A stretch of 64,000 nt of DNA from Bilabrum cf. latius (lineage: Eukaryota): the NCBI GenBank assembly GCA_965178125.1, contig OZ237767.1, forward strand, positions 558,001 to 622,000, in the 5' to 3' direction. Positions within the stretch are counted from its first letter, which is position 1; every line of letters starts with the position of its first letter. This document shows positions 28,539-60,837 of this stretch, in pieces. The position numbers and the translations under genes are program-made. Below the pieces are notes generated by a model. The model made no database searches. It saw only the letters and a program-made list of their open reading frames with translations, and was not told where the DNA came from.

Positions 28539-30901
28539 CGAGCTCACTCTGGGCGAGGCTGTGGTGAAGTAGCTGGAGCTCCCAGCAGCCTGGGCTGCTC
28601 CTCCGTGGGGCTGGAGCCAACGCAGCGGAGCCGGATCGATGGGGGAAAAAAGAAAATTTCGAGCTCACTCTGGGCGAGGCTGTGGTGAAGTAGCTGGAGC
28701 TCCCAGCAGCCTGGGCTGCTCCTCCGTGGGGCTGAAGCCAACGCAGCGGAGCCGGATCGATGGGGGAAAAAAGAAAATTTCGAGCTCACTCTGGGCGAGG
28801 CTGTGGTGAAGTAGCTGGAGCTCCCAGCAGCCTGGGCTGCTCCTCCGTGGGGCTGGAGCCAACGCAGCGGAGCCGGATCGATGGGGGAAAAAAGAAAATT
28901 TCGAGCTCACTCTGGGCGAGGCTGTGGTGAAGTAGCTGGAGCTCCCAGCAGCCTGGGCTGCTCCTCCGTGGGGCTGGAGCCAACGCAGCGGAGCCGGATC
29001 GATGGGGGAAAAAAGAAAATTTCGAGCTCACTCTGGGCGAGGCTGTGGTGAAGTAGCTGGAGCTCCCAGCAGCCTGGGCTGCTCCTCCGTGGGGCTGGAG
29101 CCAACGCAGCGGAGCCGGATCGATGGGGGAAAAAAGAAAATTTCGAGCTCACTCTGGGCGAGGCTGTGGTGAAGTAGCTGGAGCTCCCAGCAGCCTGGGC
29201 TGCTCCTCCGTGGGGCTGGAGCCAACGCAGCGGAGCCGGATCGATGGGGGAAAAAAGAAAATTTCGAGCTCACTCTGGGCGAGGCTGTGGTGAAGTAGCT
29301 GGAGCTCCCAGCAGCCTGGGCTGCTCCTCCGTGGGGCTGGAGCCAACGCAGCGGAGCCGGATCGATGGGGGAAAAAAGAAAATTTCGAGCTCACTCTGGG
29401 CGAGGCTGTGGTGAAGTAGCTGGAGCTCCCAGCAGCCTGGGCCGCTCCTCCGTGGGGCTGGAGCCAACGCAGCGGAGCCGGATCGATGGGGGAAAAAAGA
29501 AAATTTCGAGCTCACTCTGGGCGAGGCTGTGGTGAAGTAGCTGGAGCTCCCAGCAACCTGGGCTGCTCCTCCGTGGGGCTGGAGCCAACGCAGCGGAGCC
29601 GGATCGATGGGGGAAAAAAGAAAATTTCGAGCTCACTCTGGGCGAGGCTGTGGTGAAGTAGCTGGAGCTCCCAGCAGCCTGGGCTGCTCCTCCGTGGGGC
29701 TGGAGCCAACGCAGCGGAGCCGGATCGATGGGGGAAAAAAGAAAATTTCGAGCTCACTCTGGGCGAGGCTGTGGTGAAGTAGCTGGAGCTCCCAGCAGCC
29801 TGGGCTGCTCCTCCGTGGGGCTGGAGCCAACGCAGCGGAGCCGGATCGATGGGGGAAAAAAGAAAATTTCGAGCTCACTCTTATATTCACTCTGGGCGAG
29901 GCTGTGGTGAAGTAGCTGGAGCTCCCAGCAGCCTGGGCCGCTCCTCCGTGGGGCTGGAGCCAACGCAGCGGAGCCGGATCGATGGGGGAAAAAAGAAAAT
30001 TTCGAGCTCACTCTGGGCGAGGCTGTGGTGAAGTAGCTGGAGCTCCCAGCAGCCTGGGCTGCTCCTCCGTGGGGCTGGAGCCAACGCAGCGGAGCCGGAT
30101 CGATGGGGGAAAAAAGAAAATTTCGAGCTCACTCTGGGCGAGGCTGTGGTGAAGTAGCTGGAGCTCCCAGCAGCCTGGGCTGCTCCTCCGTGGGGCTGGA
30201 GCCAACGCAGCGGAGCCGGATCGATGGGGGAAAAAAGAAAATTTCGAGCTCACTCTGGGCGAGGCTGTGGTGAAGTAGCTGGAGCTCCCAGCAGCCTGGG
30301 CTGCTCCTCCGTGGGGCTGGAGCCAACGCAGCGGAGCCGGATCGATGGGGGAAAAAAGAAAATTTCGAGCTCACTCTGGGCGAGGCTGTGGTGAAGTAGC
30401 TGGAGCTCCCAGCAGCCTGGGCTGCTCCTCCGTGGGGCTGGAGCCAACGCAGCGGAGCCGGATCGATGGGGGAAAAAAGAAAATTCCGAGCTCACTCTGG
30501 GCGAGGCTGTGGTGAAGTAGCTGGAGCTCCCAGCAGCCTGGGCTGCTCCTCCGTGGGGCTGGAGCCAACGCAGCGGAGCCGGATCGATGGGGGAAAAAAG
30601 AAAATTTCGAGCTCACTCTGGGCGAGGCTGTGGTGAAGTAGCTGGAGCTCCCAGCAGCCTGGGCCGCTCCTCCGTGGGGCTGGAGCCAACGCAGCGGAGC
30701 CGGATCGATGGGGGAAAAAAGAAAATTTCGAGCTCACTCTGGGCGAGGCTGTGGTGAAGTAGCTGGAGCTCCCAGCAACCTGGGCTGCTCCTCCGTGGGG
30801 CTGGAGCCAACGCAGCGGAGCCGGATCGATGGGGGAAAAAAGAAAATTTCGAGCTCACTCTGGGCGAGGCTGTGGTGAAGTAGCTGGAGCTCCCAGCAGC
30901 C
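28539..30901. repeat. 121-bp tandem array, left arm (~19 copies); unit contains the tRNA-Cys 3' end plus oligo-T terminator
   Basis: Unit gagctcactctgggcgaggctgtgg...gatgggggaaaaaagaaaatttc. Copies differ by a few SNPs; one 12-bp insertion at 29881. Confidence 0.97.
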
Positions 30902-31326
30902 CCCCCCGCTACGGTAATAAATAAATTTATTCCCTTCGGTTAAGGATGATTAACATCATCAATAATTACGTTCAGTCAGAGCTAAAGCTCTTCCCTCTCT
31001 CCATTCCTTTTCTCGCTAGTCGCTCCAAAAGTCAAGGTGAGCCTCTTCATACTGCTACTTCATATAACTGCTTTATCCTTCTAATTATAGAAAATCAATT
31101 ATATATAAAACTCTATACGATGACCATATCCACAAATTGCGTATTAGTATATGTATTATTTAGCAAAACGTGGATGTAGCCCTCTTGTGAAGGTGTTCTG
31201 GGACTCTAGCCATTTTCTAGCCAAAAGTTCCATCACTTTATGGGACTCCATTATTCAACCTTCTAAACTACCTTCATTATACCCCCTTATCCTCGCTTAT
31301 ACCTTCACAAATGGAACAAACGCGCT
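30902..31326 (+). repeat. Left terminal inverted repeat (~425 bp)
   Basis: Reverse complement of 57329-57749 apart from a few SNPs and a swapped hairpin at 30945-30960. Confidence 0.95.
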
Positions 31327-31348
31327 TTTATTTTTAAATTGTTATAGA

Positions 31349-31367
31349 GCGTTTAAATTGACTTAAA
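31349..31367 (+). promoter_or_regulatory. Virophage promoter-like motif, consensus GCGTTTAAAATGACTTAAA (representative copy)
   Basis: Related copies end 28-31 nt upstream of the ATGs at 31396, 32505, 45900, 46332, 47751(-), 48267, 51588(-) and 54424(-). Partial copies precede 45027 and 47844. Confidence 0.75.
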
Positions 31368-31395
31368 AAATATATTTATTATAGGTATATACAGA

Positions 31396-32415
31396 ATGGA
31401 ATTATTAAAATGGGAAAATGGAACCTTGAAAGCTACACAACCAAAAGAATATTATGAACGAAATGGATTTTAGGTTAATTTTGAAGGGAAAACCTATCAT
31501 ATAGCAATGGATAAAGATTATATAAGATGGTTTTTGAAGGACTATAAACCTTATGAAATAATAACAACATTCATAACAGATATGAGTGAAGTATTCAATG
31601 GATAGGATAAATTTAATGAACCTTTGAATACTTGGGATGTTTCAAATGTTAAGGATATGAGTTTAATGTTTCAAAGTTGTAGAAGCTTTAATCAACCATT
31701 GAGCAATTGGGATGTTTCTAAGGTTGAAAAAATGTCGTCTATGTTCTATTTTTGTTCTAAATTCAATCAATCATTGAACGATTGGAATGTTAGTAATGTT
31801 AGGGATATGAGTGGTATGTTTGGTTCTTGTTCAAGATTCAATCAACCATTGGATAATTGGGATGTTTCTAAGGTTGAAAATATGTCCTCTATGTTTAATG
31901 GATGTTGGAACTTCAATCAACCATTGGATAATTGGGATGTTTCTAACGTTGAAAATATGTCCTCTATGTTCCATTATTCTGAATTCAATCAATCATTGAA
32001 CGATTGGAATGTTAGTAATGTTAGGGATATGAGTGGTATGTTTGGTTCTTGTTCAAGATTCAATCAACCATTGGGTAATTGGGATGTTTCTAACGTTGAA
32101 TATATATCCTCTATGTTTAATGGATGTTAGAACTTCAATCAACCATTGGATAATTGGGATGTTTCCAATGTCTAGAGTAAGTTTTAGATGTTAAAAGATT
32201 GTGAAAGTTTCAATCATTTAGAGAACGGTATTAAGGGTATAAGAATTGATTATTCTACAACATTGATACCGTTGTTAGAAAGACGAAAACATAAAACCAT
32301 TAAAAAAACAAAGAAATATAGAGAGGAATTAATTGCTAAAGCGTGGCACCCTTCAAGATTAGATTGGGTATTGGATAACGAGGAGCGAGACGAGATAGAG
32401 GATAATTTTAATTAA
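31396..32415 (+). CDS. DUF285/BspA-like repeat protein 1 (~339 aa, TAG read through)
   Basis: 22-aa repeats FNQPLxNWDVSxVxxMSxMF; C-terminal EELIAKAWHPSRL; TAA stop. Confidence 0.85.
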
Positions 32416-32504
32416 TAGAATTTTAATAATATTAATGATTATTTAATATTATAGTGTGAGTTTAAAAAGGCTTAAATAATATATTTATTATAGGTATATA
32501 CAGA

Positions 32505-33302
32505 ATGGAAGTTTTAAAATGGGAAAATGGAACCTTGAAAGCTACAAAACCAAAAGAATATTATTTTAGAAAAGATAATTATATTGTGAAATTTGAAGGT
32601 AAAACATATTACGTAGCTAAAGATACAGATTTTCTTCTTCACGCATTGTAGTTTTTGAAACCTGAATTATTAGTAACAACATTTATTACGAATATGTTAA
32701 ACCTATTTGATAATATGATAATTGAATCACCAATAAATTCATGGGATGTTTCAAATGTTAAAGATATGACCGATATGTTTTATGGGTGTCATTCGTTTAA
32801 TCAACCTTTAAATAACTGGGATGTTTCAAATGTTGAAGATATGGGCGGTATGTTTAATGAGTGTCATTCGTTTAACCAACCATTGAATAATTGGAATGTT
32901 TCAAATGTTGAAGATATGAGTGAAATGTTTAATGATTGCCATTCATTTAACCAACCATTGAATAATTGGAACGTTTCAAATGTTAAAGATATGTGCGGAA
33001 TGTTTTATGATTGCCATTCACTAAATCAACCTTTAAATAACTGGGATGTTTCAAATGTTGTAGATATGGAATGTATGTTTTCTAATTGTTTTAGTTTTAA
33101 TCATTTGGAGAATGGAATTAAGGATGAACGAATTGATTATTCCACGACATTAATCCCATCATTAGAAGAGCGGAAAGATGAAACAATTGAACAAACTAAA
33201 AAAATCAAAGAAGAATTAATTTCTAGAGCGTGGCACCCTTCAAGATTAGATTGGGTATTGGATAACGAGGAGCGAGACGAGATAGAGGATAATTTTAATT
33301 AA
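32505..33302 (+). CDS. DUF285/BspA-like repeat protein 2, tandem paralog (~265 aa)
   Basis: Same N-terminus (MExLKWENGTLKAT), fewer repeats, and identical last ~75 nt to gene 1. Confidence 0.85.
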
Positions 33303-33343
33303 GTTTTATTATAATAATTATTTTATTTTTAATTATTATAGAT

Positions 33344-33691
33344 ATGGTTTATATTGTATCATTAGCGTGGGGTAGTGAATGTTATCATACACACTGGGTT
33401 AAAAAGTTTAATAATAAGGAAGAAGCACAAAAGCTTTATACTGACACTTTAAAAGACCAAGCGAAGAGAGTTGTATGGAGTGATAATTGGAAAGAAGAAT
33501 ATAAAAAGGAAGCAGAAGGTCAAGTTGAAAGTTTTAATGATGACAACGGAACCGATTTCAAACTATTGAAAGAAGAAGAAATTGATAACCTTACTAATAG
33601 TGAATTAGAAGAGTATATAGAATTATCGTTGATGTATGCTGAAGAATATGATGATTCAAATGAATGGTTTGATATTGAGTTTTTAGAATAA
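33344..33691 (+). CDS. Acidic hypothetical virophage protein (115 aa)
   Basis: Clean ATG-TAA ORF with an AT-rich leader. Confidence 0.7.
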   Translation: MVYIVSLAWGSECYHTHWVKKFNNKEEAQKLYTDTLKDQAKRVVWSDNWKEEYKKEAEGQVESFNDDNGTDFKLLKEEEIDNLTNSELEEYIELSLMYAEEYDDSNEWFDIEFLE

Positions 33692-33738
33692 ATTTTTGAA
33701 TTTTAATAATACTATTATTATTATTATTAATATATAGT

Positions 33739-34155
33739 TTAATCCTTGGGTAAGATAAAGTCATCTATAGCCTTTTTGATGATGTCATCCTTCTATTTCT
33801 TTATTGATTTCTCAATGGCTTCCTTCTCTTTTTTAACCAATAAATCTATGGCTACGGTATCATTTAAGTCTTCACTTAGGCATTCAACATTTTCTTCATT
33901 TAGCTTGTGTATTATTCTAAATGGTTGAACGAAATATGATATATAATCAATTTCTTCAAATTCACTTAATACTCTTTTTTTAAGTCGTTCATTACAATCT
34001 GGAGGGACACGAAGGTCATCAAGTTGAAAATGCTTTAACATTGATGGTTTGTGCTTCTCAACATAAATATATACGATTGACATAAAAGTGGAGATGCTTT
34101 TATTCTTGAGTACCTTTTTAACGTTGACACTTGATAACAGGAACTTAACGAACAT
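33739..34155 (-). CDS. Hypothetical virophage protein (138 aa)
   Basis: Track ORF extended through the TAG at 33793 to TAA at 33739. Confidence 0.65.
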
Positions 34156-34256
34156 ATTATAATGTAGCCCAATATTTTATTTTAATTTATTAAACCCGTT
34201 TTATAAAATTCTATAGTTTAAAAAAAATAAAAAAAATATCTAGTAATTATATATAA

Positions 34257-34628
34257 ATGGATAAATTACAAAAAGTGATTAATACCCGCTCAAAGTTAAA
34301 GAATGAATTTCTTGATATTGTAGAAGACTTTAAGAAGACCAATCGTGAATTAGAACAAAAGTTAAAGCAACTAAAAATAAAAGAGACAGAATTAAAAAAT
34401 AAAGTGAATAGTAAATTAACCGCTCTTAATGTGGAATATAAAGAGGTGAGCAAAAAGAAAGCAGAAGCTATAGCCCCTTATATGAAAACTTTAAAAGCAT
34501 TAAAAGGAAGGATGACTGGATTGACAAAGAAAGACAAGGACAAGCTGATTGACGTTCATCAAGAGATAAGGAAAATTAAAGAATAGATTAAAGTAAATGA
34601 AGCTATTAATAGGCTTTTTAATTCGTGA
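34257..34628 (+). CDS. Coiled-coil hypothetical protein (123 aa)
   Basis: K/E-rich heptads; extended through the TAG at 34584 to TGA. Confidence 0.65.
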
Positions 34629-34668
34629 ATAATTAATTTATAAATATTAAAATCAATTAATATATATA

Positions 34669-35826
34669 ATGAGTAAGAGAGGAAAGAAAAAAGATAATGA
34701 TATTAATGAGTCAAGTTTTGGATTTAATACGAAGTCTATCACGAACGATTTAATGAAGCCGATAAAGAAACCGAAAGGATTGAATTATGTTAAATATTAT
34801 AAACCTACTAAAGAGGGGCTTATCCAATAGGCTGATTTATTGTATCTCCCTTACGCTACCAAGAACGATTCAAAATATTTATTAGTTGTGATAGATACGA
34901 GCGGGTTAGCGTTAGATTTTGAAGAGTTAAAGGATAGAGGGGCGGAGGATGTGATAAAAGCTTTTCAAAAAATCTATAAAAGAAATTATTTAATGAAACC
35001 TAAAATGATACGAACAGATAAAGGGGGAGAATTTGATAATGAATTATTTAAAGAATATCTAAAGAAGAATAAGATAGAGCATATATTTTCAAGAGTGAAG
35101 CGTAAATCGTAGATGGCTTTAGTGGAGAGATTGAATGAGGAAATAGGGAGAGCTATATTTTATTATTTGAATTCATAGGAGATAAGAACGGGGACAACTA
35201 TCACGAACTGGAGACATTTAATACCAAAATTGAGGGAGATATTAAACGAGCGTTATAAAACAAGATAGGAAATGTTGAATAAGAAAAGGGAGAATCTACC
35301 ATATATACCGCCTAGATGTTAGGGTGAAGTATGTGATGTATTAAATGAGGGTGAAATGGTAAGAATAGGATTAGATTATCCTAGAAGTATAGAAGGGATA
35401 AAGGAAACCGGAGCATTTAGGGCGGGAGATATTAAATATAGCGTAAAGCCTTATAAAATTGAAAGAGTAATAATAAAACCAGATAACCCCCCATTATATA
35501 AAATTGAGGGCATACCCTATACATACTTTAATAGAGATTAGTTGTTATTAGCATCTAAACCATACGAGAATAAAGCACAAGATATATTTATAATTGAAAA
35601 ATTGATAAGAAAGAATAAAAATAATACATACAGGGTTAAATGGAAAGATTCATATGTTGATGAGGCTACTAAAAGAAAATATTAGAATGATATAGGTAAA
35701 ATAATAAAGAGAAGAAAGAATCAAGAGGGACAAGATGAATATTTAATTCAATGGAAGATAACAACGGAGCCGGCTAAAAATATATCAAAAACTCTAAAGG
35801 ATAATTTTAATAATAAGACTAAATAA
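34669..35826 (+). CDS. Retroviral-type (rve) DDE integrase with C-terminal chromodomain-like region (~385 aa)
   Basis: IQ*ADLLYLP (D), KYLLVVID, IRTDKGGEFDN (D), KS*MALVERLN (E), GEMVRI; C-terminal IEKLI..YRVKWK and IGKII..EYLIQWK..TEP. * = TAG. Confidence 0.92.
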
Positions 35827-35862
35827 ATATTATTAATTTATATTTTAATAATATTCAAATAA

Positions 35863-36480
35863 TTACACTCTGTAGGTCATATTATAGACTGACATAACCA
35901 TCTATGAAAGCCCTTCAAACGTATTATACACGCTATACTCATTAGGGTTAAAACTTTTCAAAAATTCAGCTCGTGAATGTCTTGCTACATCCTTATCTTC
36001 ATTATCTAAATCTTTATGGATTTTGCTATACAGTTTATCGCTGGGTATAGCTACGCATATGCTGGATTTTTTGAATATTTCTTGTGCTAGTTCAAAATCA
36101 CTTGTTAAAAAGACTGCTCTATGTTCTGCTTTCTATAACCAATTTTTCTTTACAGACTCAATACTTTTTTTCATAAGTTCAAATTTTAATAATTTAGCCG
36201 TTGATAAGTCCCCTCTTCGTTCTGCTTCGTTTAGGTATAAAACCTGTTTGGTGTCAGCATTAACTTTAAGGACTTCATCTAAATCAACTAATAGAATATT
36301 CGGGTCTATAGACGTTAAACTTTTGTTAAGTGAACTTTTACCTCCTTTTCGTGGAAGGACTAAACACAATTTTTTACGATTCGCAAGTGAGGAACATAAG
36401 TTCCAAAGGAAGCATCCCGCATATCCTAGAGGAACCAACACCCCACCAACCGTGCTTGCTGTTGCTACTAACTCTGCCAT
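35863..36480 (-). CDS. P-loop NTPase/kinase-like protein with hydrophobic N-terminus (~205 aa)
   Basis: LCLVLPRKGGKSSL (degenerate Walker A), ILLVDLDE. Open through two TAGs to TAA at 35863. Confidence 0.55.
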
Positions 36481-36525
36481 TATATATATCTATACAAAAC
36501 AAAATATTATTATCCTATAGACTAA

Positions 36526-38604
36526 TTATTTTAATAATCTTAGTTTTTCAAAGTGTTGATATAAGATTTGTTTTACCTTGTCCTTCACATTATGATTACC
36601 TTTACCACCGGCTATATTAAAATATTCTTGTTCAATTTGTCCTCCTTTATGCTTGCCACATCCACAACTACCGCCCCTATTCTATGTTTTTATTTTCTAA
36701 TCAATAATTAAATTAATAGCTTTCATTAACATATTATAAGGGTCTTTATTTCCAAAACCTTGAGCTGGTGGTGAATATGTCCATTGAGGCTTCCCGCTTA
36801 ATTCATATCCCGTATCGTTTAGTCTTGATTTTGCTAATGTTCTATCACTTCTGGTTGCTCTTCCTTCTGTATTTGCTCTAGCTACTAAAGACCTAACAGC
36901 ATCAGTTGATAAATTAGGTTGTAAGACTCCGGCTTTAAGCCTTCGTATAATATATTTTAAAGTGTTAATTGTTGGGCTGGCGTCTGTTGGATTTATTCCT
37001 CTTGCTTTTAACTATGATAATATTTCATTTTTATTGCCTTTAGCATTTATTGATTGTCCTATTGATTTGGCTATTTCATCATCTGTTTTCTGTGGTTCTT
37101 GTGGTTCTGCTGGTTCTTGTGCTGGTTCTGCTGGTTGTGCTTGTTGTGCTGGTTCTACGGCTTCTCCATCTCTTGGTTCTTCATCTGGGGCTCCCCTCCG
37201 TTCTCTAGCTTGTCTTTCTTTTTCTTCTTGTTGTCTTTGTGCTTCATCTCGTTCTGCCTGTGCTTGTCTTTGTCTGAATTGAACTTCTGTAAGTTGTCTT
37301 CCAAATTCATCTGTAATAGGTTCTCCATCTTCATCTACTGCCATCGCTTCACCTTTTCCTCTGTCTTGACCTGCGGGGGGTGCTTGTGGTTGTGAGCCTG
37401 TTTTTCCTGTTAAATAACTGATACCATCCATAACCGATTGTCCTAAAGAACCAAATGTGCTTTGTTGTTGTTCTGGTGATTGTCCTTGTTCTTGTTCTGG
37501 TGATTGTCCTTGTGGTTCTGGTGATGCTTGTAAGAATCCACTAGGTGGAACTGGTGCGGGTGATACTTTTGAAAACTAGCCTGATAAATTTCTACTGGCG
37601 TTCTCCCCTTCTTCTTCTTGTCCTGATGATTGTGATGCCTCTTGTTCTTGTGCTTTTTGTTTAAGTTCTGATAATTTCTTCTAAGCACTTTTTATAAAAT
37701 CAACTTTAGACCGTCCTTTTACACCTTTAACATTTGACTCTCTAAGTATTTTTGCTAGTTCGGTTTTCTTTGGTGCTTTTCTACTACTTGAAGGATTGGC
37801 GTTTGCTACTCTTTCAAGTGCTTCAATTTGTTCTTGTAGTTCTGGGCTTAATGCTTCTTGTGGTGTTGGAGGGGGTTTTGGTCTTGGTTCTGGTGGCGGT
37901 TGCGGGTTATCTGGTTCAGGTCTATCAGGTTGCGGGTCATCTCTTTGCTATTGTTGAACGGCTTCAGGAGGATTTAAAACATCCTATAAAGCATTAACAG
38001 CGTCATCAACTTTTGTTAATTGTGAAACATTCTATCCTTGGGGGGTTTTCGTGATTCCAGCTTGTCGTAAAGCGTTTCGTATTTGAACTGCTTTTAATCC
38101 TCTCATATCGCTTGGTAATTGTTCTAATACTGCGTCCCGTTGTGCTTTAGTGGTTGTAAATAATCTCATATTAATATTTTTAATTCCATCAAATACCTTT
38201 TTCTTATCGCTTGCTGGTCCTACTACCTACCTTACATTAATATTATTAATGGTATCTACAACCTATCTTTTTAATTTATCCGGTAAATCTGGATTTCTAT
38301 TTATAAATGATTGTAAATTTTCTATTTGATAAATTGGTAATTCTTTTTTAGCGTTCATAGTCTTAATATTTTTAATAATATTTTCAATTCCTTGTTGTTG
38401 TTGTTGTCTTTCAATTCTAACATCAATAGGAACATAATTAGCACGAAGGAAAGCATCATCTTTTAGGGTTTTTCTTCTGGCTTCTGCTTCATCTTCTTCT
38501 TGCTATATCATTAATCTAACTTGTGGGTCATTTTGTATCCTAAGTTGATTAGACCGTTTCTACATAATACCCTTCAGTAAATCATTAATTGTATTGTTTG
38601 ACAT
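36526..38604 (-). CDS. Large Gln/Glu/Pro-rich protein (~692 aa), possible virion core precursor
   Basis: A single frame once TAG is sense (includes CAA CAA TAG CAA). C-terminal di-glycine motifs NRGG, HKGG, IAGG. Confidence 0.7.
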
Positions 38605-38681
38605 TGTATATATATATTATTAATGATATAATTAATAATTTATAAACTTAAGAGATAATATGTCAATTGGTAGGCTGTCTT

Positions 38682-39062
38682 TTAAAATGAAATATCCTTA
38701 TTCATAAGGTCGTGTTTCTTTATAAAGGAATTGCTGGCTTTCATAGTCATTCCCTTTTGACGGCACCATTTCATTAATTTATCCCTCTTTAACTATTTAG
38801 CACTACGGGGCTTTTTAGCTTTAGGGGCTTTCTTTGAACCCTTCTTTTTTCCTCCAATATAATTAACACTACCAGCAAGGACATTAGCTGAGCCGGCAAT
38901 CAAAGCTCCCCCTTTTGTCTTTCCTTTTGTGGTTGCGTTTAATATTTGGTTTGCGGTATCTTCAACCATTTTATCAATTTCTTTTTTATAATCATTTCTG
39001 TTTATTCCAAGATGATGAAGGCTTTTATTTGTCATATCATTTATGCTCTATTTAACGCTCAT
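38682..39062 (-). CDS. Small basic core/DNA-condensing protein-like (~126 aa)
   Basis: TKGG..IAGS..LAGS..YIGG followed by a Lys-rich tract and RDKLMKWCRQKGMTMKASNSFIKKHDL, resembling a motif recalled from virophage core proteins. Confidence 0.6.
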
Positions 39063-39119
39063 ATTATTGTATATATTGGGTATATATAATTTGTTATTTA
39101 TCCATACTTATAATATATA

Positions 39120-49793: not shown

Positions 49794-49952
49794 ATGATTA
49801 ATATTATTAGTAATATCTTTGTTTAGTATGCTATTAAGAAGGCATTAAAGAAGGTAAAAAATAAATTAATGAAGAATCCAAATAATAAAAGACTCTATGA
49901 AGAATATAGAAAAAAAACGGCTCACGCAATTAAAAAATTATCATTTTATTAA
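49794..49952 (+). CDS. Small basic protein (52 aa)
   Basis: Fills the gap between genes; TATATA leader; one TAG. Confidence 0.4.
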
Positions 49953-49960
49953 TTATATAG

Positions 49961-50668: not shown

Positions 50669-50721
50669 TATTATAGGTTTGATATAAGTTTTAGTTTTTC
50701 TCTTATTTATATATACAAAAA

Positions 50722-51243
50722 ATGAGCTTAGCAAGATTATCGCAACCTAATGATATATCTATTCAATGTAAGAATGTCGCAACTGGTAGATTAGATAGTA
50801 GTGGTCTATATGTAAATGCTGTTGTGAATAGTAGTGATGTAGTTGTTAGCAACGCAGGATTACATCTTGACAGTAAGGGTATTTCTTACATCACTTCGGG
50901 TCAAGCTTTACGATTCGGTGCCAATACCGCATCTGCTGGTTTAGTTATGAGTTTTGATGAAGACGGTCACGAATGTGATTTAACCGTAAAAGGTGAAGTA
51001 GTAGCAAATAACACCGTAGCGCATAAAGGAAGGGTAAATTGGAGTGGTGGAGGTGCTACTGAATTCGCTAGTGTTCCGGGTATGACTTCTAGTGATTTGG
51101 TTTTTATTACTACAATCACCCCCGCCAGTGAGCCGGTTGAATTTTCCCACGTAGTAGCAGGAACCGATGGATTTACGATTCATTTAACGGGTGGTAATTC
51201 CTCTAATGATTGGTCGGCTAATTGGATGGTTATTAAAGGTTGA
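50722..51243 (+). CDS. Beta-rich putative fibre/spike structural protein (173 aa)
   Basis: G/S/T/V-rich ORF; C-terminal domain ..TDGFTIHL..NWMVIKG resembles fibre-tip domains. Confidence 0.5.
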   Translation: MSLARLSQPNDISIQCKNVATGRLDSSGLYVNAVVNSSDVVVSNAGLHLDSKGISYITSGQALRFGANTASAGLVMSFDEDGHECDLTVKGEVVANNTVAHKGRVNWSGGGATEFASVPGMTSSDLVFITTITPASEPVEFSHVVAGTDGFTIHLTGGNSSNDWSANWMVIKG

Positions 51244-51285
51244 AAAATCTTTTTATTTATAAAAAAAATAAATAAATAGATAAAT

Positions 51286-51588
51286 TTAAATTGATATCTC
51301 CGGTGGTTTAATCCCGCTATTAAGCAGGGTTTGATTAAGTTTCTTGATATATTCCTCTAGTATATCCTTTTTTGGTTCTTTGAGATTTTTTTGGTGTTTC
51401 TTCGTTCGTTCGTGTCTCGTTCTGTCCTTCCTTCTATAATAACAATCACACACATCGCATTTAACTTTTTCATTTCCTCTAGCTAAATATTTTTTATTCC
51501 ATTTGTCTTTGTTTGTTTTGTAATATTCCTACATATAATTAATTTTTGGTTGCTCCTCTGTATTGCTTGAACTCTAAATATCGCTCAT
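51286..51588 (-). CDS. C2H2-type zinc-finger protein (100 aa)
   Basis: KVKCDVCDCYY..RTRHERTKKH; promoter motif 28 nt upstream. Confidence 0.75.
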
Positions 51589-51646
51589 CACTATATATTA
51601 TATAAATATATAATGTTTAAGTTATTTTAAACACATAAAAAAGGTA

Positions 51647-54424
51647 TTAAATATTCTGATCTAATCGTTCGTTGGATTCCTTGTATATGTCCTTCATTTC
51701 GGGATACTAATATTTATAAACTTCATCAAATAATTCTTTCTCCTTGGTGAATTTAATTCTTAATTCTCTATCCTTTTTATCCTTTTTATTCCCCATACTC
51801 CAGGAGGTTTTAATATTTCCAAATAACTACTTATATAATTTTACTATTGCCCCGTGTAATTCACTATCGGTTTCTATTGGCTTCTATAATCTCGCCCCGC
51901 TTACTTCTACATATCTTTTACCCATTTCTATATATTTAATGGATTTCTCATTTTTACGTGTATAACTTAAATCAAATTTATTCAATTTAAGCGTCTATAA
52001 CATCTCCTACAATATGATTATTTTATTCTTTGTACTTTTTGCTTTCTCATCCTTAAAATCCTTTCTATCCTTTAATTCTGTCATTAGTTTATATTTATCT
52101 TTTCTCTTAAAATTAGCATAATTAAAATAATTCATTAATTTGTAATTATCAATTAATAACATTTTAATATCCTCCGTTATGGCTGTCTCTGGTAGCCCTA
52201 AAATTTCAATTCTTCTTTTTATATGGTCGTTCTCTACATCAAATGAATCAATCTATTCTTGTAGTACCTCCATTGTCGCCTCTTTCATCTGCTATTTATT
52301 CATTCGTTGTGGTAATTCCTTATCCACCTATACATCGGCACCCCTGTTTTTAAGAATAAGCTATAAATGAATATATTTATTTGTTTCGTATGTATCACAT
52401 TTGAAATTATATAATTTCTTGAGTGGTAAATAAACCTTATATGATGCCTCTATCATTGCTTTATGGGCTATCTCTTCATCATCTTCTCCCTCAAAAATAT
52501 CAATGTCAATATCATTCTCCTACATTATCCTTTTTTCGTATTTTTCTAATTTAGTATATAAATCTGTCTATGCGTTAATTTCCATATTTAAGGTCGTCTA
52601 TACCTCCTTTAAATTCTCATATCTTGGATAAATGGATTTTACATCTTCAAAATATATATTCATATATTCGGGATTTCTACATCTTGCCAGTTGCTACATC
52701 ATCTACGGCGGTAGAATCGTTTTTCCTTTATATAATCCATACACTGGGCGCTCCATTACACTATCTAATCCGTAAATGACTTTAGGACTAAATATAATTT
52801 TATCATATTTATCTAAGCTCACATCCTCATCAGGTAATAAATCACTAGTAATTAATTTAACGTCCTCTATACCATCTTTACATAACATTTTATAAAATGT
52901 ATCTGCGTTCTTCTTGCTATCACACGCCAGTATAAATTTATCTTCACTTTTTAATTTATCGTAAAATTTCTATTGGTCTTTTTCAAAATATACTTTTACG
53001 TCCTTAAAATGCTTATATTTATTCTTAATGAAGCTAAATTCTACTCCAGCACATTTTAAAAATTTCATCGCTATCTGGGATATGTCAGCATCTACAGCAA
53101 TAAACTATTTACACGTCCTTATCATTTTTAAAATAATAAATAATACAAGAACCCTATTATTATTCATCGTGGTAGAACTTAATATATGCTCTATAATGCT
53201 ATTGAATTCATCCAAAAATACGATGTATTTAGAAAAATCATAATTCACAATTTGGGGGATACTTTCCGGCGTAATAATAAGAGACTATCCAAAATCAAAA
53301 GTTTTATTCTGGTAGAACTCACATTTAATATCTTCATTTAAAAAGCTCTCGTATTGCTCTGTGCCTAAACATACACGGGATACAATGGATAAGAACGGCG
53401 TTTGAACCTGTTTAATGTATTTCTTAAATGCTGTTGTTTTACCTGTTCCTGTATCACTTTTTACCACATAATTATATTCATATTTAAAAAATCGTTCGGG
53501 CTTCTCTATATCATCTAATTTAGGTTTATTAATTTCTGTATACCCGTTAATATTCTCGTCATAAGGACGATAATAACACTTTGAAATATACTTATCTTTC
53601 ACAAATGCCTTTAAACTTTTATCATTCTAAATTATTGAATTAACTAAATTAAAGGTTTTTAACTTATCAAAATAATGGATAGAGTTCCACACCTTGTTAT
53701 TTTTGTGGTAGTCGTATTTATTGCCCTTCTTGCTCCACTCCTACCACTCCTTCTTAAATCCTAAATATTTACTCGCTAGGGTTGCTTTATACCAATCACT
53801 ATAATTATTTAAATATTTCTTATCTAGTCTATTTAATATAATTGACCAGTCTTTACCATTTAAAATGAATTTCATCATACAGTTATTCACATCTTGATTA
53901 TCAATTTTTGATATCCTTTTACTCGCCCCTTTTACGTTGGATTTCTTAGAGGATTTAATAATATACTTTTCATAAAATTTATAAAGCTCCTTAGGACATT
54001 TTTTTATTTCTACATTATTAATAACTTCGTATTTTGACCCATTTATGCCACTTGGTGGTGCCACTACATAAGCCCCATCATTCCTAATATCAACGTCAAT
54101 ATCTCTATTGGTGGTAGTTAATATATTCTAATCATATTTAAAATATAGATGATACCCTCCACCCGCTGTTTTAACCGTGAATGTGTTGAACCGCTTCACA
54201 AAGTCATCTGAAAATTTCTTGATGAATAAATGCTCCTTCTTATCGCTCCATTTATATGAATCAATATCAAACACGGTTATATTATTAATTTCTCCGGTGA
54301 TAATAGCCATATTCTGATTATTAAATCGTTTAGGCTCGGGTTTGGTGAGATATCGCCAGCTTTTAACATCAGGTATTTTTTGATTGTGCTTGATGGGGAA
54401 ACTAACGAGGTTTTTATTATTCAT
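51647..54424 (-). CDS. Prim-Pol (AEP) + PriCT-2 + UL9-like superfamily-2 helicase fusion (~925 aa)
   Basis: NMAIITG..VFDID, TAGGGYHLYF, DIRNDGAYVVAPPS; YSDWYK..W*EWSK; KSDTGTGKTT, SIVSR, FLDEFNS, VDAD, FSPKVIYGLD, MM*QLARCRN. Track fragments share one frame. Confidence 0.88.
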
Positions 54425-54579
54425 TTTCTATATATATTATTAGAAATATATTTTTAAACTATTTTAAACGCCATATTTAATTATAGAGGGCTTAAAGGGG
54501 CTATAATAATTAATGAAGGTAAAAGGTGATTTTTGCCATTTAGCCCTAAAAAATAGATTGTGATATGAATGGTGTATTT

Positions 54580-54775
54580 TAACACCTTCTAAAGTGATGG
54601 AACTATTTTTAAAAATTATCTAAAGGTCCCATACCACCTTCACAAGAGGCCCTACATCCACGTTTTGCTAGAAATACTATATAATTATACGCAATTTGTG
54701 GATATAGCCATCGTATAGATTTTAATATAGCGGTTATATTAAAATATTTTATTAAATTCTAGCCCGTTTATTAAG
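54580..54775 (-). repeat. Internal inverted copy of the TIR-related element (core 54656-54703)
   Basis: accttcacaagaggccctacatccacgttttgcta...tacgcaatttgtggatatagccatcgta. Confidence 0.85.
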
Positions 54776-54787
54776 TTGTAGGGGCTT

Positions 54788-55558
54788 TTAATTATAGATA
54801 TCTTGTAGTTTTTCGTGTTCGGCCTTCACATCAAGGGTCAAATATACCCGGCTATTCCAAAACTCAGGGCTGTTGATATCATCGCTATTATTAATATTAT
54901 AATTCCTTTTTATTTTTGATATCATAATTTGTAATTTACGAGGGCTAAACTATTTCTTAAGAGCCTCTACATCGGGTAAATTAATTTCACCAAAAAATAC
55001 ATCATTTCCATTTACGGACACTTTATACCTATAGTCTCCGTCTTCTAGCCTTTCTAGGTCTCCTATTATTTGTTTCTCTTCCTCAGGTATCATTTCATCA
55101 TCACTTTCTGCTTCTATCTAGTCTTGTTCGGTACTAACGCTGTTTATTTCACTTTCACTGTCAGGCTCCATACCGGTAAATTTTTCATCTATTGCGGTCT
55201 ATCTAATTAATTCTGGCGGTTGTAAATCATCTACATCATTATAAATTTTATTATTCTGTGGTTTATAGTCATTAAATTTATCTAGAATGTATGTTTGGTT
55301 AATTTCAAGCTGGTCGTTATTATCGTGTTGTATCTTCTGTTTCTCTTCTTTCTTGGGTTTTTTGACGGCTTTTTTCTCTTTAATATCACTAACTATATTT
55401 TTATTAATTAATTTAGACGTGGAAAACCTTCCACCTAAATCTACATACGTAGTAATGGTCTCTAAAATTTTTTGCGTACTATCTGTAATATGGTCTGTAG
55501 CCTTATAAATCTGCTTCATTAGGACGGGATTTTCAATGACATAATTATTAAAGTTCAT
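54788..55558 (-). CDS. Acidic hypothetical virophage protein (~256 aa)
   Basis: Track ORF extended through TAGs to TAA at 54788. Confidence 0.65.
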
Positions 55559-55870
55559 ATCTATAATACTAAGTTATAATTTTTGAGTTTTAAAAAAACG
55601 CTTAGAGGTGGGGGGGTTATGTGGGGGTTATCCCTAGCCTTTAGGCTAGGGTTATGGGTCTGGCTTCAATTATTCAATCCAATTCTCCTTCCTTTGCGGT
55701 TCCATCCGTCAGTTTATACCCTCCTGCCCTACATTTTCATCACTTCCTCGTGCTGGAACTTCTCACTGCTACCACTGGAATCGGCTATCGTCTACCACCT
55801 TCTCATCTTCATCTTCGGAACCTGTGCTACGCCAAAATTTATCTGGACCACACATAAAACACATAAAACA

Positions 55871-56338
55871 ATGGCCGGGGTTTCTACAGATGTTAATGAT
55901 GAAGTAATGAAGGCGCTTATTGCTGGTATTGAAGACATTGGAGCAGTGGGCGAGGAGTGGGACAGGGTTCTTCAATCTTTTGACGGCGAGACTGCCACGG
56001 TGAAGCTAGGCGAGGAAATCCAGACCTATGAGATTATCACCGAAGAAGAAGCAGACAAACGTTTGGACGACCACGCTACAGAGACGCTTGCTTCCTTCGT
56101 TCCTGCGTTCCTCTCGCGCTTCCTGCCTTGCGATGCCGATATCATAAGCACCGCTACCGCTGACGCGAACCACAGCGAGGCTTTAAGCGCCCTTCTTAAG
56201 TCATTTATAGTGGCTTAGGGGCGCTGGGACGACCTCATTCAGGCCTGTAAAGATGAGGACGGGCTGGGACATTTTCTAAACAGCTACGACGGGAGCACGA
56301 GCGAGCAAAATGGATACGTGGTGATGCGTGTGGATTGA
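55871..56338 (+). CDS. Hypothetical protein (155 aa) in the higher-GC terminal cassette
   Basis: ATG at 55871, one TAG (56216), C-terminal EDGLGHFLNSYDG..YVVMRVD, TGA. Confidence 0.7.
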
Positions 56339-56521
56339 TTGGATTGACTGAGACCACAAATGAAACATTGAAATGCTCTTCAATGCGGGATTCCACCCGT
56401 GTCAATGCTGGAAGCACGGTTCGTACCCTGCTACACACGACAGCGTGGCCACTCCAATATAGCCGTGTCCCTACCAATAACAAACACGACAATTTATAAT
56501 AAAAAAGGTTGTTCAACCTTC

Positions 56522-57215
56522 TCACTTCTCCATCTTGGGCTAAGAACCCGCCGTCCGGGGATAGTCCTGGATGAGATTCTCATTGCCGCGAAACCGCTTG
56601 GCTGGTGCGGCGATGCCAGATTCCAGAAGAAGCTACTTGTTGAAGTCTTGGCGGCGCTTCCTCTTCTGGTTCTTCTCCAAAACATCACCAACGAGCGATG
56701 GGATGTCATATGCTGGAAGAAATGGCTTGAGGATAGCCATTTTCTGTGCCAAGAACGCCTGTGTCTGCCTCGTCTCCGCGTAATCTCTGCCGTGATGTAG
56801 AATCTTCAGCACGCCATTAATCCGGTCAAAGTCAGCATCGGTATCGTCAAGACTCCCCTTGGGGAATATTGAAGCGATAACAGCGAGTAGAGCCTTTGAG
56901 TTGACGCCTGTCGGTTCCAATGCTCCGACCGCCTCCCGAATTGCCTTCTCCAGCGACTTCCCGGTTTGCTCAACGAGGTGCATGTCCCCTAGTAGCCTTG
57001 AATGCGCTTTCAAAAGCTTCTTGGGGTTCTTCTCGGTTTGTACGGTGTCCTGGAAGGTGAGTAGCGCTTCCGTTCCCGTTTTCTTGCGTTGGTCGGGCTT
57101 GAAGAGCTGCGTTGGCGAGCAAAACCGGTGCGATAGATACAGATACGGTCAGCAAAGCAATTTCCATATGTTGATTATCTATCCTGTGGATTCTTACCTC
57201 AATCTTGCGGTCCAT
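56522..57215 (-). CDS. Intron-containing hypothetical gene (exons 57198-57215 and 56522-57106, ~200 aa)
   Basis: ATG GAC CGC AAG ATT GAG|GTAAGA...GCTGAC...ACGCAG|CTC TTC AAG. A 91-nt phase-0 intron joins the ATG to an upstream-open frame. Confidence 0.65.
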
Positions 57216-57328
57216 ATCTATTGTTTTAGGCTGGTGAAGTGATCAGCTGGCCTACAGCGTCATCGTTCCGGGGTGTATTGAACTGTGGCGCTTGTGGTAT
57301 TGCGATGACGAGTGTAGCAAGTTGCTGT

Positions 57329-57749
57329 AGCGCGTTTGTTCCATTTGTGAAGGTATAAGCGAGGATAAGGGGGTATAATGAAGGTAGTTTAGAAGGTTGA
57401 ATAATGGAGTCCCATAAAGTGATGGAACTTTTGGCTAGAAAATGGCTAGAGTCCCATAACACCTTCACAAGAGGGCTACATCCACGTTTTGCTAAATAAT
57501 ACATATACTAATACGCAATTTGTGGATATGGTCATCGTATAGAGTTTTATATATAATTGATTTTCTATAATTAGAAGGATAAAGCAGTTATATGAAGTAG
57601 CAGTATGAAGAGGCTCACCTTGACTTTTGGAGCGACTAGCGACAAAAGGAATGGAGAGAGGGAAGAGCTTTAGCTCTGACTGAACGTAATTATTGAAACT
57701 TGTTTCCTTAACCGAAGGGAATAAATTTATTTATTACCGTAGCGGGGGG
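57329..57749 (-). repeat. Right terminal inverted repeat (~421 bp)
   Basis: Reverse complement of 30902-31326. Confidence 0.95.
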
Positions 57750-60700
57750 CAGCCTGGGCTGCTCCTCCGTGGGGCTGGAGCCAACGCAGCGGAGCCGGAT
57801 CGATGGGGGAAAAAAGAAAATTTCGAGCTCACTCTTATATTCACTCTGGGCGAGGCTGTGGTGAAGTAGCTGGAGCTCCCAGCAGCCTGGGCCGCTCCTC
57901 CGTGGGGCTGGAGCCAACGCAGCGGAGCCGGATCGATGGGGGAAAAAAGAAAATTTCGAGCTCACTCTGGGCGAGGCTGTGGTGAAGTAGCTGGAGCTCC
58001 CAGCAGCCTGGGCTGCTCCTCCGTGGGGCTGGAGCCAACGCAGCGGAGCCGGATCGATGGGGGAAAAAAGAAAATTTCGAGCTCACTCTGGGCGAGGCTG
58101 TGGTGAAGTAGCTGGAGCTCCCAGCAGCCTGGGCCGCTCCTCCGTGGGGCTGGAGCCAACGCAGCGGAGCCGGATCGATGGGGGAAAAAAGAAAATTTCG
58201 AGCTCACTCTGGGCGAGGCTGTGGTGAAGTAGCTGGAGCTCCCAGCAGCCTGGGCTGCTCCTCCGTGGGGCTGGAGCCAACGCAGCGGAGCCGGATCGAT
58301 GGGGGAAAAAAGAAAATTTCGAGCTCACTCTGGGCGAGGCTGTGGTGAAGTAGCTGGAGCTCCCAGCAGCCTGGGCCGCTCCTCCGTGGGGCTGGAGCCA
58401 ACGCAGCGGAGCCGGATCGATGGGGGAAAAAAGAAAATTTCGAGCTCACTCTGGGCGAGGCTGTGGTGAAGTAGCTGGAGCTCCCAGCAGCCTGGGCTGC
58501 TCCTCCGTGGGGCTGGAGCCAACGCAGCGGAGCCGGATCGATGGGGGAAAAAAGAAAATTCCGAGCTCACTCTGGGCGAGGCTGTGGTGAAGTAGCTGGA
58601 GCTCCCAGCAACCTGGGCTGCTCCTCCGTGGGGCTGGAGCCAACGCAGCGGAGCCGGATCGATGGGGGAAAAAAGAAAATTCCGAGCTCACTCTGGGCGA
58701 GGCTGTGGTGAAGTAGCTGGAGCTCCCAGCAGCCTGGGCTGCTCCTCCGTGGGGCTGGAGCCAACGCAGCGGAGCCGGATCGATGGGGGAAAAAAGAAAA
58801 TTTCGAGCTCACTCTGGGCGAGGCTGTGGTGAAGTAGCTGGAGCTCCCAGCAACCTGGGCTGCTCCTCCGTGGGGCTGGAGCCAACGCAGCGGAGCCGGA
58901 TCGATGGGGGAAAAAAGAAAATTTCGAGCTCACTCTTATATTCACTCTGGGCGAGGCTGTGGTGAAGTAGCTGGAGCTCCCAGCAGCCTGGGCTGCTCCT
59001 CCGTGGGGCTGGAGCCAACGCAGCGGAGCCGGATCGATGGGGGAAAAAAGAAAATTTCGAGCTCACTCTTATATTCACTCTGGGCGAGGCTGTGGTGAAG
59101 TAGCTGGAGCTCCCAGCAGCCTGGGCCGCTCCTCCGTGGGGCTGGAGCCAACGCAGCGGAGCCGGATCGATGGGGGAAAAAAGAAAATTTCGAGCTCACT
59201 CTGGGCGAGGCTGTGGTGAAGTAGCTGGAGCTCCCAGCAGCCTGGGCTGCTCCTCCGTGGGGCTGGAGCCAACGCAGCGGAGCCGGATCGATGGGGGAAA
59301 AAAGAAAATTTCGAGCTCACTCTGGGCGAGGCTGTGGTGAAGTAGCTGGAGCTCCCAGCAGCCTGGGCTGCTCCTCCGTGGGGCTGGAGCCAACGCAGCG
59401 GAGCCGGATCGATGGGGGAAAAAAGAAAATTTCGAGCTCACTCTGGGCGAGGCTGTGGTGAAGTAGCTGGAGCTCCCAGCAGCCTGGGCCGCTCCTCCGT
59501 GGGGCTGGAGCCAACGCAGCGGAGCCGGATCGATGGGGGAAAAAAGAAAATTCCGAGCTCACTCTGGGCGAGGCTGTGGTGAAGTAGCTGGAGCTCCCAG
59601 CAGCCTGGGCTGCTCCTCCGTGGGGCTGGAGCCAACGCAGCGGAGCCGGATCGATGGGGGAAAAAAGAAAATTTCGAGCTCACTCTGGGCGAGGCTGTGG
59701 TGAAGTAGCTGGAGCTCCCAGCAGCCTGGGCTGCTCCTCCGTGGGGCTGGAGCCAACGCAGCGGAGCCGGATCGATGGGGGAAAAAAGAAAATTTCGAGC
59801 TCACTCTGGGCGAGGCTGTGGTGAAGTAGCTGGAGCTCCCAGCAACCTGGGCTGCTCCTCCGTGGGGCTGGAGCCAACGCAGCGGAGCCGGATCGATGGG
59901 GGAAAAAAGAAAATTTCGAGCTCACTCTGGGCGAGGCTGTGGTGAAGTAGCTGGAGCTCCCAGCAACCTGGGCTGCTCCTCCGTGGGGCTGGAGCCAACG
60001 CAGCGGAGCCGGATCGATGGGGGAAAAAAGAAAATTTCGAGCTCACTCTGGGCGAGGCTGTGGTGAAGTAGCTGGAGCTCCCAGCAACCTGGGCTGCTCC
60101 TCCGTGGGGCTGGAGCCAACGCAGCGGAGCCGGATCGATGGGGGAAAAAAGAAAATTTCGAGCTCACTCTGGGCGAGGCTGTGGTGAAGTAGCTGGAGCT
60201 CCCAGCAGCCTGGGCTGCTCCTCCGTGGGGCTGGAGCCAACGCAGCGGAGCCGGATCGATGGGGGAAAAAAGAAAATTTCGAGCTCACTCTGGGCGAGGC
60301 TGTGGTGAAGTAGCTGGAGCTCCCAGCAGCCTGGGCTGCTCCTCCGTGGGGCTGGAGCCAACGCAGCGGAGCCGGATCGATGGGGGAAAAAAGAAAATTT
60401 CGAGCTCACTCTGGGCGAGGCTGTGGTGAAGTAGCTGGAGCTCCCAGCAGCCTGGGCTGCTCCTCCGTGGGGCTGGAGCCAACGCAGCGGAGCCGGATCG
60501 ATGGGGGAAAAAAGAAAATTTCGAGCTCACTCTGGGCGAGGCTGTGGTGAAGTAGCTGGAGCTCCCAGCAGCCTGGGCTGCTCCTCCGTGGGGCTGGAGC
60601 CAACGCAGCGGAGCCGGATCGATGGGGGAAAAAAGAAAATTTCGAGCTCACTCTGGGCGAGGCTGTGGTGAAGTAGCTGGAGCTCCCAGCAGCCTGGGCT

Positions 60701-60778
60701 GCTCCTCCGTGGGGCTGGAGCCAACGCAGCGGAGCCGGATCGATGGGGGAAAAAAGAAAATTTCGAGCTCACTCTGGG
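57750..60778. repeat. 121-bp tandem array, right arm (~25 copies), ending inside tRNA-Cys
   Basis: Resumes in phase after the TSD. The last gagctcactctggg is the 3' end of the tRNA. 12-bp insertion variants near 57835, 58936 and 59069. Confidence 0.97.
60740..60763 (-). terminator. Oligo-T RNA polymerase III terminator downstream of tRNA-Cys (repeated in every array unit)
   Basis: Minus strand reads AAATTTTCTTTTTTCCCCC just after the tRNA 3' end. Confidence 0.6.
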
Positions 60779-60837
60779 ACTTGCACCCAGGACCAACCGA
60801 ACTGCAATCGGACGCTCTACTGCTGAGCTAAGTAAGC
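60766..60837 (-). tRNA. trnC: tRNA-Cys (GCA), somewhat atypical loops
   Basis: GCTTACT TA GCTC AGCAGTA GAGC G TCCGA TTGCAGT TCGGT TGGTC CTGGG TGCAAGT CCCAG AGTGAGC T folds as a 72-nt cloverleaf with a GCA anticodon and U73 discriminator. Confidence 0.8.

Follow-up and report, generated by a model that had tools for sequence, protein, structure and literature searches.

The stretch analysed here comprises 64,000 nucleotides from Bilabrum cf. latius (assembly GCA_965178125.1, contig OZ237767.1, positions 558,001 to 622,000; hereafter the window, with positions counted from its first letter), and it holds a virophage genome integrated within a tandem array of 121-bp units that starts inside the 3' end of a tRNA-Cys gene. 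The anatomy of this locus, the order of the two events that formed it, the type of integrase and the virophage identity of the insert are established. Taken as a whole, the locus is in our judgement probably the product of DNA-level minisatellite amplification followed by one ordinary virophage insertion. One 121-bp segment, composed of the last 13 nt of tRNA-Cys and 108 nt of downstream sequence including the T-run terminator, would have expanded to 44 copies through replication slippage or unequal exchange. The amplification would have been seeded by a 15-bp direct repeat, the first copy of which is the tRNA 3' end; the tRNA gene is left intact because the array starts after its T loop. Later, a single mavirus-like virophage would have integrated, using its own DDE integrase of the retroviral type and duplicating 5 bp of the target. 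How the amplification took place, where the seed repeat came from and any role of chromatin targeting are matters of inference. The site at which a virophage settles decides whether it is a costly parasite or a cheap heritable defence against giant viruses, and this locus provides a clean, testable example of a virophage in a tRNA-linked repeat.

The tRNA-Cys(GCA) gene is the sole tRNA identified by ARAGORN and the sole Rfam match within the window. Reading along the minus strand, the tRNA 3' end (...GTCCCAGAGTGAGCT) is followed by CGAAATTTTCTTTTTTCCCCC..., and the string CCCAGAGTGAGCTCGAAATTTTCTTTTTT is encountered again 121 nt later. Tandem Repeats Finder reported two 121-bp arrays with a common consensus, at 28539-30901 (19.4 copies) and 57841-60778 (24.1 copies), each with 98% matches. 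A unit-by-unit parse of the sequence yielded 44 units (40 of 121 bp and four of 133 bp) plus a terminal 15-bp core, for an array length of 5,387 bp after subtraction of one copy of the target duplication. A preliminary description of this DNA had the minus-strand tRNA-Cys gene running into about 44 units of 121 bp, with the array ending at 28539 on one extra copy of the core. The parse agrees on both points, four of the 44 units being the 133-bp variant. The same description assigned to each unit the last ~13 nt of the tRNA, 2 flanking nt and an oligo-T stretch, and this composition was recovered. According to the ARAGORN cloverleaf, the core consists of the T-stem 3' strand CCCAG, the acceptor-stem 3' strand AGTGAGC and the discriminator T (13 nt), followed by the flanking CG; AAATTTTCTTTTTT stands directly after the core in every unit, and each unit carries a T4/T6 run after the tRNA-derived residues and CG. 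The exact core CCCAGAGTGAGCTCG occurs 41 times, always on the minus strand and inside the arrays. The notion of a satellite built from a tRNA 3' end is therefore correct in that the array begins within that end, with the qualification that just 13 of the 121 nt of each unit are tRNA-derived. The other 108 nt are the downstream flank of the tRNA, and the internal promoter boxes of the tRNA are present in none of the units.

The units are 98-100% alike. Among the 40 regular units 23 are identical to the consensus, and the remaining 17 have one or two differing positions. No further copy of the unit is present elsewhere in the window, and an exact-pattern scan of metagenome contigs returned no exact match to it. 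Since 121 is not a multiple of 3, the repeat unit is unable to stay in frame. A structured DNA or RNA role for the unit was also considered and is ruled out by its predicted fold, which is no better than that of shuffled sequences (z = -0.71). In four of the 44 units the core is split by a 12-bp insert, such that it reads CCCAGAGTGA[ATATAAGAGTGA]GCTCG, i.e. a 7-bp AGAGTGA duplication around ATATA. The insert resembles the footprint of an excised transposon, or else an insertion made during templated repair, and would later have spread by copying inside the array. The virophage lies in one of these four units, and contigs both with and without the 12 bp were found in two public sequencing runs (X2 and X4). 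The array occupies a gap between two convergent host open reading frames (ORFs) that end at 27753 (+) and 60984 (-), in keeping with the gene-free site that had been described previously.

The inserted element is distinguished from its surroundings by base composition, with a GC content of about 30% compared to 60-72% in the flanks. It is bounded by terminal inverted repeats (TIRs), of which the left and right copies differ by 2 substitutions and one divergent patch of 13 versus 9 nt. The TIR is absent elsewhere in the window, and its end has no exact match in viral or metagenome contigs. The left flank ends ...CCCAGCAGCC and the right flank begins CAGCCTGGGCTG..., each with one copy of the target site duplication (TSD) CAGCC. 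When residues 30902-57749 and one CAGCC were deleted in silico, a complete, in-phase 133-bp unit was restored. Because excision restores the unit, we conclude that the element entered a pre-existing array in one cut-and-join integration event that duplicated 5 bp of the target. The array is thus older than the virophage insertion. The insertion lies in the 25th unit counted from the tRNA, 3,016 bp beyond the tRNA 3' end. From the TIRs, the 5-bp TSD and the rve integrase we further conclude that the element inserted by a DDE mechanism. The virophage copy looks recent and intact, as judged from its near-identical TIRs and from 25 gene models that are open when TAG is read as glutamine (Gln).

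With that reading of TAG, the element contains about 25 closely packed genes (Table 1). Its penton protein matches the Sputnik minor capsid family above the Pfam cutoff. The major capsid protein (MCP) gave a weak Pfam match of its own to MCP_V20_C (17-20 bits) and was not matched by anything in a word-based protein search; an MCP fragment was likewise unmatched in a phage collection. A phmmer search identified 55 MCP relatives, the best full-length one at 32% identity, and within the aligned MCP family MCP_V20_C was found in 24 of 26 members (best E=1.5e-17) and Sputnik_MCP_1st in 8. As the penton match is above cutoff and the MCP family has these matches, the element is a virophage. The claim that the satellite hosts one was therefore upheld: the element splits one unit cleanly, and its capsid, penton and integrase genes identify it. 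By its capsid, penton, integrase, TIR and TSD, the element qualifies as an integrating virophage of the mavirus type.

The integrase matched the foamy-virus and human T-lymphotropic virus (HTLV) integrase cores in the Protein Data Bank (PDB), and its relatives in IMG/VR, from 11 loci, are 29-35% identical. Its own match to the Pfam Chromo family (E=1.8e-4, 21.8 bits) is under the cutoff of 25.1, while 7 of 16 members of the integrase family have a Chromo match (best 4.1e-15), and the C-terminal alignment retains the Y-x-V-K-W ... E-P pattern. The ATPase-like ORF gave weak P-loop matches on a fragment only; the full ORF had none in Pfam, and no relative was found in a PDB sequence search. The protease-like ORF had no Pfam match, and it too is unconfirmed by PDB searches. 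Both ORFs lie immediately upstream of the penton and MCP genes, in the order expected of an FtsK-HerA-type packaging ATPase and a maturation protease. The element also encodes a DUF5872 protein (Pfam). Its only DNA-level matches in the phage collection are those of the DUF285 genes, to genes annotated 'surface protein 26-residue repeat' that come mostly from Synechococcus phages (39 of 42 records).

Table 1. Features of the tRNA-Cys locus, the 121-bp array and the integrated virophage (window coordinates)
Feature	Position	Strand	Size, sequence or basis
Provirophage	30902-57749		26,848 bp; composition, inverted repeats, ORFs, codon counts
Left TIR	30902-31326	+	425 nt; begins CCCCCCGCTACGG
Right TIR	57329-57749	-	421 nt
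Left TSD copy, CAGCC	30897-30901		junction sequence
Right TSD copy, CAGCC	57750-57754		junction sequence
DUF285 26-residue-repeat paralogues	31396-32415 and 32505-33302	+	E=1e-86 and 8e-55
Integrase, retroviral-type (rve, DDE), chromodomain-like C-terminus	34669-35826	+	Pfam rve E=5.8e-11
P-loop protein (GKSGSGKS), putative packaging ATPase	39998-41098	+	role inferred from gene order
Putative cysteine protease	41107-41682	+	H, D and C motifs by eye; between ATPase-like and penton genes
Penton (minor capsid) protein	42019-42972	+	Pfam V18-19 (Sputnik minor capsid) E=5.4e-7, 29.2 bits, cutoff 27
Major capsid protein, virophage type	43044-44933	+	629 amino acids; phmmer relatives, family Pfam matches
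Polymerase-like ORF	48267-49766		no supporting match in Pfam or PDB sequence searches
Primase (Prim-Pol + PriCT_2) fused to helicase-like region	51647-54424	-	925 amino acids; Pfam Prim-Pol 7.5e-16, PriCT_2 3.2e-6
tRNA-Cys(GCA) gene	60766-60837	-	Rfam RF00005, 57.2 bits against a gathering score of 29; ARAGORN 60765-60837
3'-terminal 13 nt of tRNA-Cys, shared with the start of array unit 1		-	CCCAGAGTGAGCT; sequence read
tRNA-proximal array half	57750-60778	-	22 x 121 bp, 2 x 133 bp, 101 nt from the start of the split 133-bp unit (one TSD copy included)
Distal array half	28539-30901	-	last 37 nt of the split unit, 18 x 121 bp, 1 x 133 bp, terminal core
Terminal 15-bp core	28539-28553	-	sequence; unrelated sequence from 28538 on
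12-bp insert	57829-57840, 58930-58941, 59063-59074, 29875-29886	-	ATATAAGAGTGA (minus-strand reading); unit parse

Three other properties of the element were observed. An ORF of 692 amino acids at 36526-38604 (-) has a low-complexity middle rich in Pro, Gln and Glu, contains 12 TAG codons, lies at a local GC content of 0.41 and has no family match. Intergenic modules of 45-118 nt that are 73-96% alike occur in both orientations at 31083-31200, 41679-41838, 46934-47157, 54630-54754 and 57476-57573. They occupy gaps between virophage genes that are divergent or adjacent and also occur in the TIRs; they cause false contig joints and may be shared promoter modules. The right end of the element (~55600-57300) has a GC content of 38-52%, compared to about 30% elsewhere, with ORFs that lack a family match. 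Contigs of this end have a depth below that of the rest of the element in all four runs, and in X2-X4 they join a TIR-proximal sequence that is differently arranged. This region may represent cargo specific to this copy, or an insertion nested within the element.

Read with the standard code, the element looks decayed, having just nine ATG-started ORFs of at least 150 amino acids, together with many adjacent in-frame fragments. Freeing TAG raised the content of stop-to-stop frames of at least 150 amino acids from 2,676 to 7,728 residues, with frames of 929, 696, 659 and 509 amino acids; freeing TGA gave 4,223 residues and freeing TAA gave 6,178. The element gene models contain 103 in-frame TAG in 7,278 codons and are terminated by TAA (17) or TGA (8). 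TAG makes up about a third of the Gln codons, and CAG is rare (24). Three of the seven TAG positions of the integrase fall in conserved columns of an alignment with 15 relatives, in which Gln is present in 14, 13 and 15 of the 15. As these three integrase TAG codons align with conserved Gln columns, we conclude that TAG encodes Gln. In the FNQPL repeat motif of the DUF285 genes, all 10 motif glutamines are CAA.

The same code is apparent in the host. Five host ORFs (window 1-28500 and 60984-63998) contain 26 in-frame TAG among 7,228 codons but neither TAA nor TGA internally, compared to 150 TGA and 24 TAA in the other two frames. Host and provirophage thus both use TAG as a sense codon and TAA and TGA as stops. 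A relaxed ARAGORN run that allowed introns made 27 further tRNA calls, which we regard as false; introns of 51-2,725 nt are present in every call except one, which is located inside a host ORF. No credible suppressor tRNA was found in the window by this run. Virophage genes fragment under standard-code gene calling, so that such elements are easily mistaken for decayed copies; the database protein P0018, for example, corresponds to just the last 325 amino acids of the MCP. We found no virophage paper on a TAG=Gln code in the literature searched. In-frame TAG is absent from the coding frame of the host glutaminyl-tRNA synthetase (GlnRS) gene at 1078-3714 (-). The best named relatives of this protein (plasmodiophorid, green algae and plants) are only 40-45% identical, and other database proteins are 97% and 78% identical, which points to a host lineage without a close named genome in the protein collection searched. 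Elsewhere in the host DNA, 7258-9806 is a large 156/300-bp tandem repeat (8-16 copies, 93-95% matches) that lies in a GC-rich part, is open in several frames and is probably a repetitive host coding region.

Several properties of the array bear on how it arose. Every unit runs past the tRNA end into genomic CG and T runs, not CCA. Because CG and T runs rather than CCA trail the discriminator, amplification took place at the DNA level. A retro-copy origin of the core, either tRNA-primed or from a mature tRNA, was considered and is excluded by the CG at this position. In addition, variant units recur in blocks: of the four copies of the 133-bp variant, two are adjacent to each other and three come immediately after the same G-variant unit. 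Such block recurrence argues for multi-unit unequal exchange and not for 44 independent integrations. The preliminary description had left the choice between repeated integration and amplification; the amplification half of that proposal fits the anatomy, while the repeated-integration half does not, given the same 106-bp spacer in 44 of 44 units and the variants that occur in blocks.

Several observations weigh against the reading that we favour. The array is periodic over n units plus 15 bp, and these 15 bp are almost exactly the tRNA overlap (13 nt + 2). We estimate that a distal end placed arbitrarily would match the length of the tRNA overlap to within 2 nt in about 4% of cases, and the seed repeat is therefore probably non-accidental; plain slippage leaves the source of the seed repeat unexplained. 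The combination of a chromodomain integrase and insertion in a satellite is an outcome also expected of targeted integration. The chromodomain match of this particular integrase is under the Pfam cutoff. Lastly, 18 of 29 sites of endogenous mavirus-like elements (EMALEs) in Cafeteria are no more than 10 kb from host repeats in the excerpted text of PMC8547959, so that some repeat bias is possible.

The source of the seed has a possible, if doubtful, alternative explanation. A tyrosine-recombinase element could once have integrated into the T-loop/3' end of tRNA-Cys, duplicating 13 nt + 2 and leaving a 106-bp remnant that was then multiplied by unequal exchange. This proposal concerns the seed only and is compatible with the reading that we favour. 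In bacteria and archaea, tRNA 3' ends are duplicated in this manner by integrases. The array can be written as (core + 106 bp) x 44 plus one core, and the core begins exactly at the T-stem 3' strand and ends 2 nt past the tRNA. An exact 15-bp repeat 106 bp apart is also unexpected by chance, as we estimate about 0.01 such direct-repeat pairs per 64 kb. However, the 106-bp spacer and the scanned ORFs yielded no recombinase gene and no remnant recognisable as an element, and to our knowledge integration at a tRNA attachment site (att) has not been established for nuclear elements of this type in eukaryotes. Moreover, the B box ends exactly where the core starts, and template switching at a fork stalled on a factor-bound B box could set the same boundary. 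The simplest seed is a 15-bp direct repeat, its copies 106 bp apart, that was present before amplification began. Whichever way the seed arose, the expansion to 44 copies is amplification and not repeated integration.

The position of the virophage could also reflect targeted docking, in which the integrase would be steered to the array by chromodomain binding to silent chromatin or by proximity to RNA polymerase III (Pol III), and the array would serve as a preferred safe harbour. We consider this unlikely. In its favour, the insertion is in a non-coding satellite adjoining a tRNA gene, chromodomains are present in 7 of 16 members of the integrase family although the match is weak in this integrase, and chromodomain-directed integration was raised as a possibility by Hackl et al. 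(PMC8547959). The contigs of runs X1-X4 also contain many variants of the element at the 90-99% level, which points to the probable existence of several related copies. On the other hand, the landing-pad reading draws on one insertion. The array accounts for about 14% of the host DNA in the window (5.4 of 37.2 kb), and at that share a local insertion into it is not improbable. Targeting to Pol III genes would be expected to give a narrow, fixed distance seen repeatedly, and what we find is one insertion, about 3.0 kb from the tRNA. Relatives are without sequence or tRNA preference in the excerpts of PMC8547959 and PMC12220804: EMALEs gave no evidence of sequence-specific integration, with TSDs of mostly 3-5 bp (PMC8547959), and zero tRNA genes lay within 1 kb of cryptophyte polinton-like virus insertions (PMC12220804). 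Furthermore, 15 of the 22 EMALE sites that were classified by host context are in genes (PMC8547959).

A more elaborate version of the docking idea is more doubtful still. The minisatellite would be a preferred and reversible dock, with chromodomain steering on the way in and scar-free array exchange on the way out as a circle with a few units, and the virophage, and by implication its giant-virus helper, would be adapted to TAG=Gln. The exit step has a structural basis. The two array halves are direct repeats of 2.4 and 3.0 kb that are 98-100% alike, and homologous recombination between the two would remove the provirophage scarlessly and could release it as a circle. As the halves can recombine, insertions in such arrays would be short-lived unless selected. 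The near-identical TIRs and intact genes of this element fit short-lived insertions.

Insulation of the provirophage by a terminator-rich array had been suggested as a further role. The T runs would stop Pol III on the minus strand only, so they would not insulate RNA polymerase II genes. The site is harmless to the host because it is non-coding and lies between two convergent genes. A harmless site, possibly with chromodomain tethering to silent repeat chromatin, is enough to explain an intact copy at this position. We see no sign here that the array evolved or works as a dedicated landing pad or insulator.

Forty-four separate integrations of small elements at a regenerated tRNA 3' end are hardly credible. 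An att-like core is formally present in each unit, but the spacers are near-identical (hence the 23 consensus-identical units noted above), and blocks of units have variants in common, including the core-internal 12-bp insert that was copied four times. The 106-bp spacer lacks coding capacity, and the predicted fold of the unit is at the level of shuffles. No tyrosine or serine recombinase was found when 20 element and five host ORFs were scanned against Pfam, a scan that was not exhaustive for the window, and the integrase of the element is of the DDE (rve) type, which produces target duplications instead of att repeats. An att-integrated element would be flanked by direct repeats of the tRNA 3' end; the core flanks only 106-bp spacers, and the resident virophage is flanked within a unit by its 5-bp TSD, not by tRNA-end copies.

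Five public sequencing runs from two studies, on record as non-RNA and all examined as contigs, contain 83-86% of sampled words of 28000-37900. Over 37900-57880 their contigs are many short pieces with 90-99% variants, which suggests several related copies of the element. A loose contig end at 57329 carries the inner continuation of the left TIR arm. Among the contigs shown, no piece bridges 57749/57750, and none has a loose end at another insertion site. Empty alleles are unrecognisable from such short pieces because any array unit looks like an empty site. That the virophage was misplaced into a collapsed repeat during assembly is nonetheless scarcely conceivable: repeats and TIRs do cause assembly problems at such loci (PMC8547959) and the right junction lacks a bridging piece, but a perfect 5-bp duplication with exact unit phase across 26.8 kb is unlike a chimeric join, and most of the sampled words of the left part recur in runs from both studies.

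The main interest of the locus is a testable hypothesis, a plausible scar-free exit route, and a TAG=Gln code common to virophage and host. If the hypothesis is true, an array that takes up virophages harmlessly and sheds them by recombination would be a simple means of carrying a defence of this type, and virophage copies could come and go in the host genome without cost to the host genes.

The arrangement resembles several known systems to different degrees. An intact tRNA gene with additional copies of its 3' end downstream is also seen in bacterial att-site islands at tRNA genes and in tandem arrays of such islands. In contrast to those islands, the 44 copies here flank a 106-bp non-coding spacer, the scanned ORFs contain no site-specific recombinase, and the resident virus is flanked by a target duplication rather than by tRNA-end repeats. 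The yeast elements Ty1 and Ty3 are described as inserting upstream of Pol III genes, Ty3 in a narrow window. The likeness to them is a mobile element near a tRNA gene, a position read as a 'safe harbour'; the present element, however, is about 3.0 kb downstream of its tRNA and within a repeat. In chromoviruses (Ty3/gypsy), a chromodomain integrase guides insertion into heterochromatin (Gao et al. 2008, cited in PMC8547959). The virophage shares with them a DDE integrase, here with a chromodomain-like C-terminus, and an insertion in tandem-repeat DNA, but it is a DNA virus and not a retroelement, its chromodomain score is sub-cutoff, and one insertion is at hand.

The closest likeness in organisation is to the EMALEs or mavirus provirophages of Cafeteria burkhardae (PMC8547959). 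Like these, the present element is AT-rich in a GC-rich protist genome and has long TIRs with a short TSD, an rve integrase with a chromodomain-like tail, a primase-helicase, and a morphogenesis run of ATPase-like, protease-like, penton and MCP genes, as far as the excerpted account of EMALEs extends. It differs from them in that its host is not Cafeteria, as indicated by best named GlnRS relatives of 40-45% identity, and in that its genes all need TAG=Gln. Its MCP is divergent, with no word-level relatives and with 32% identity to the best full-length relative. Finally, whereas the context-classified EMALE sites are mostly genic (15 of 22 in the excerpts of PMC8547959), this virophage occupies a minisatellite linked to a tRNA gene.

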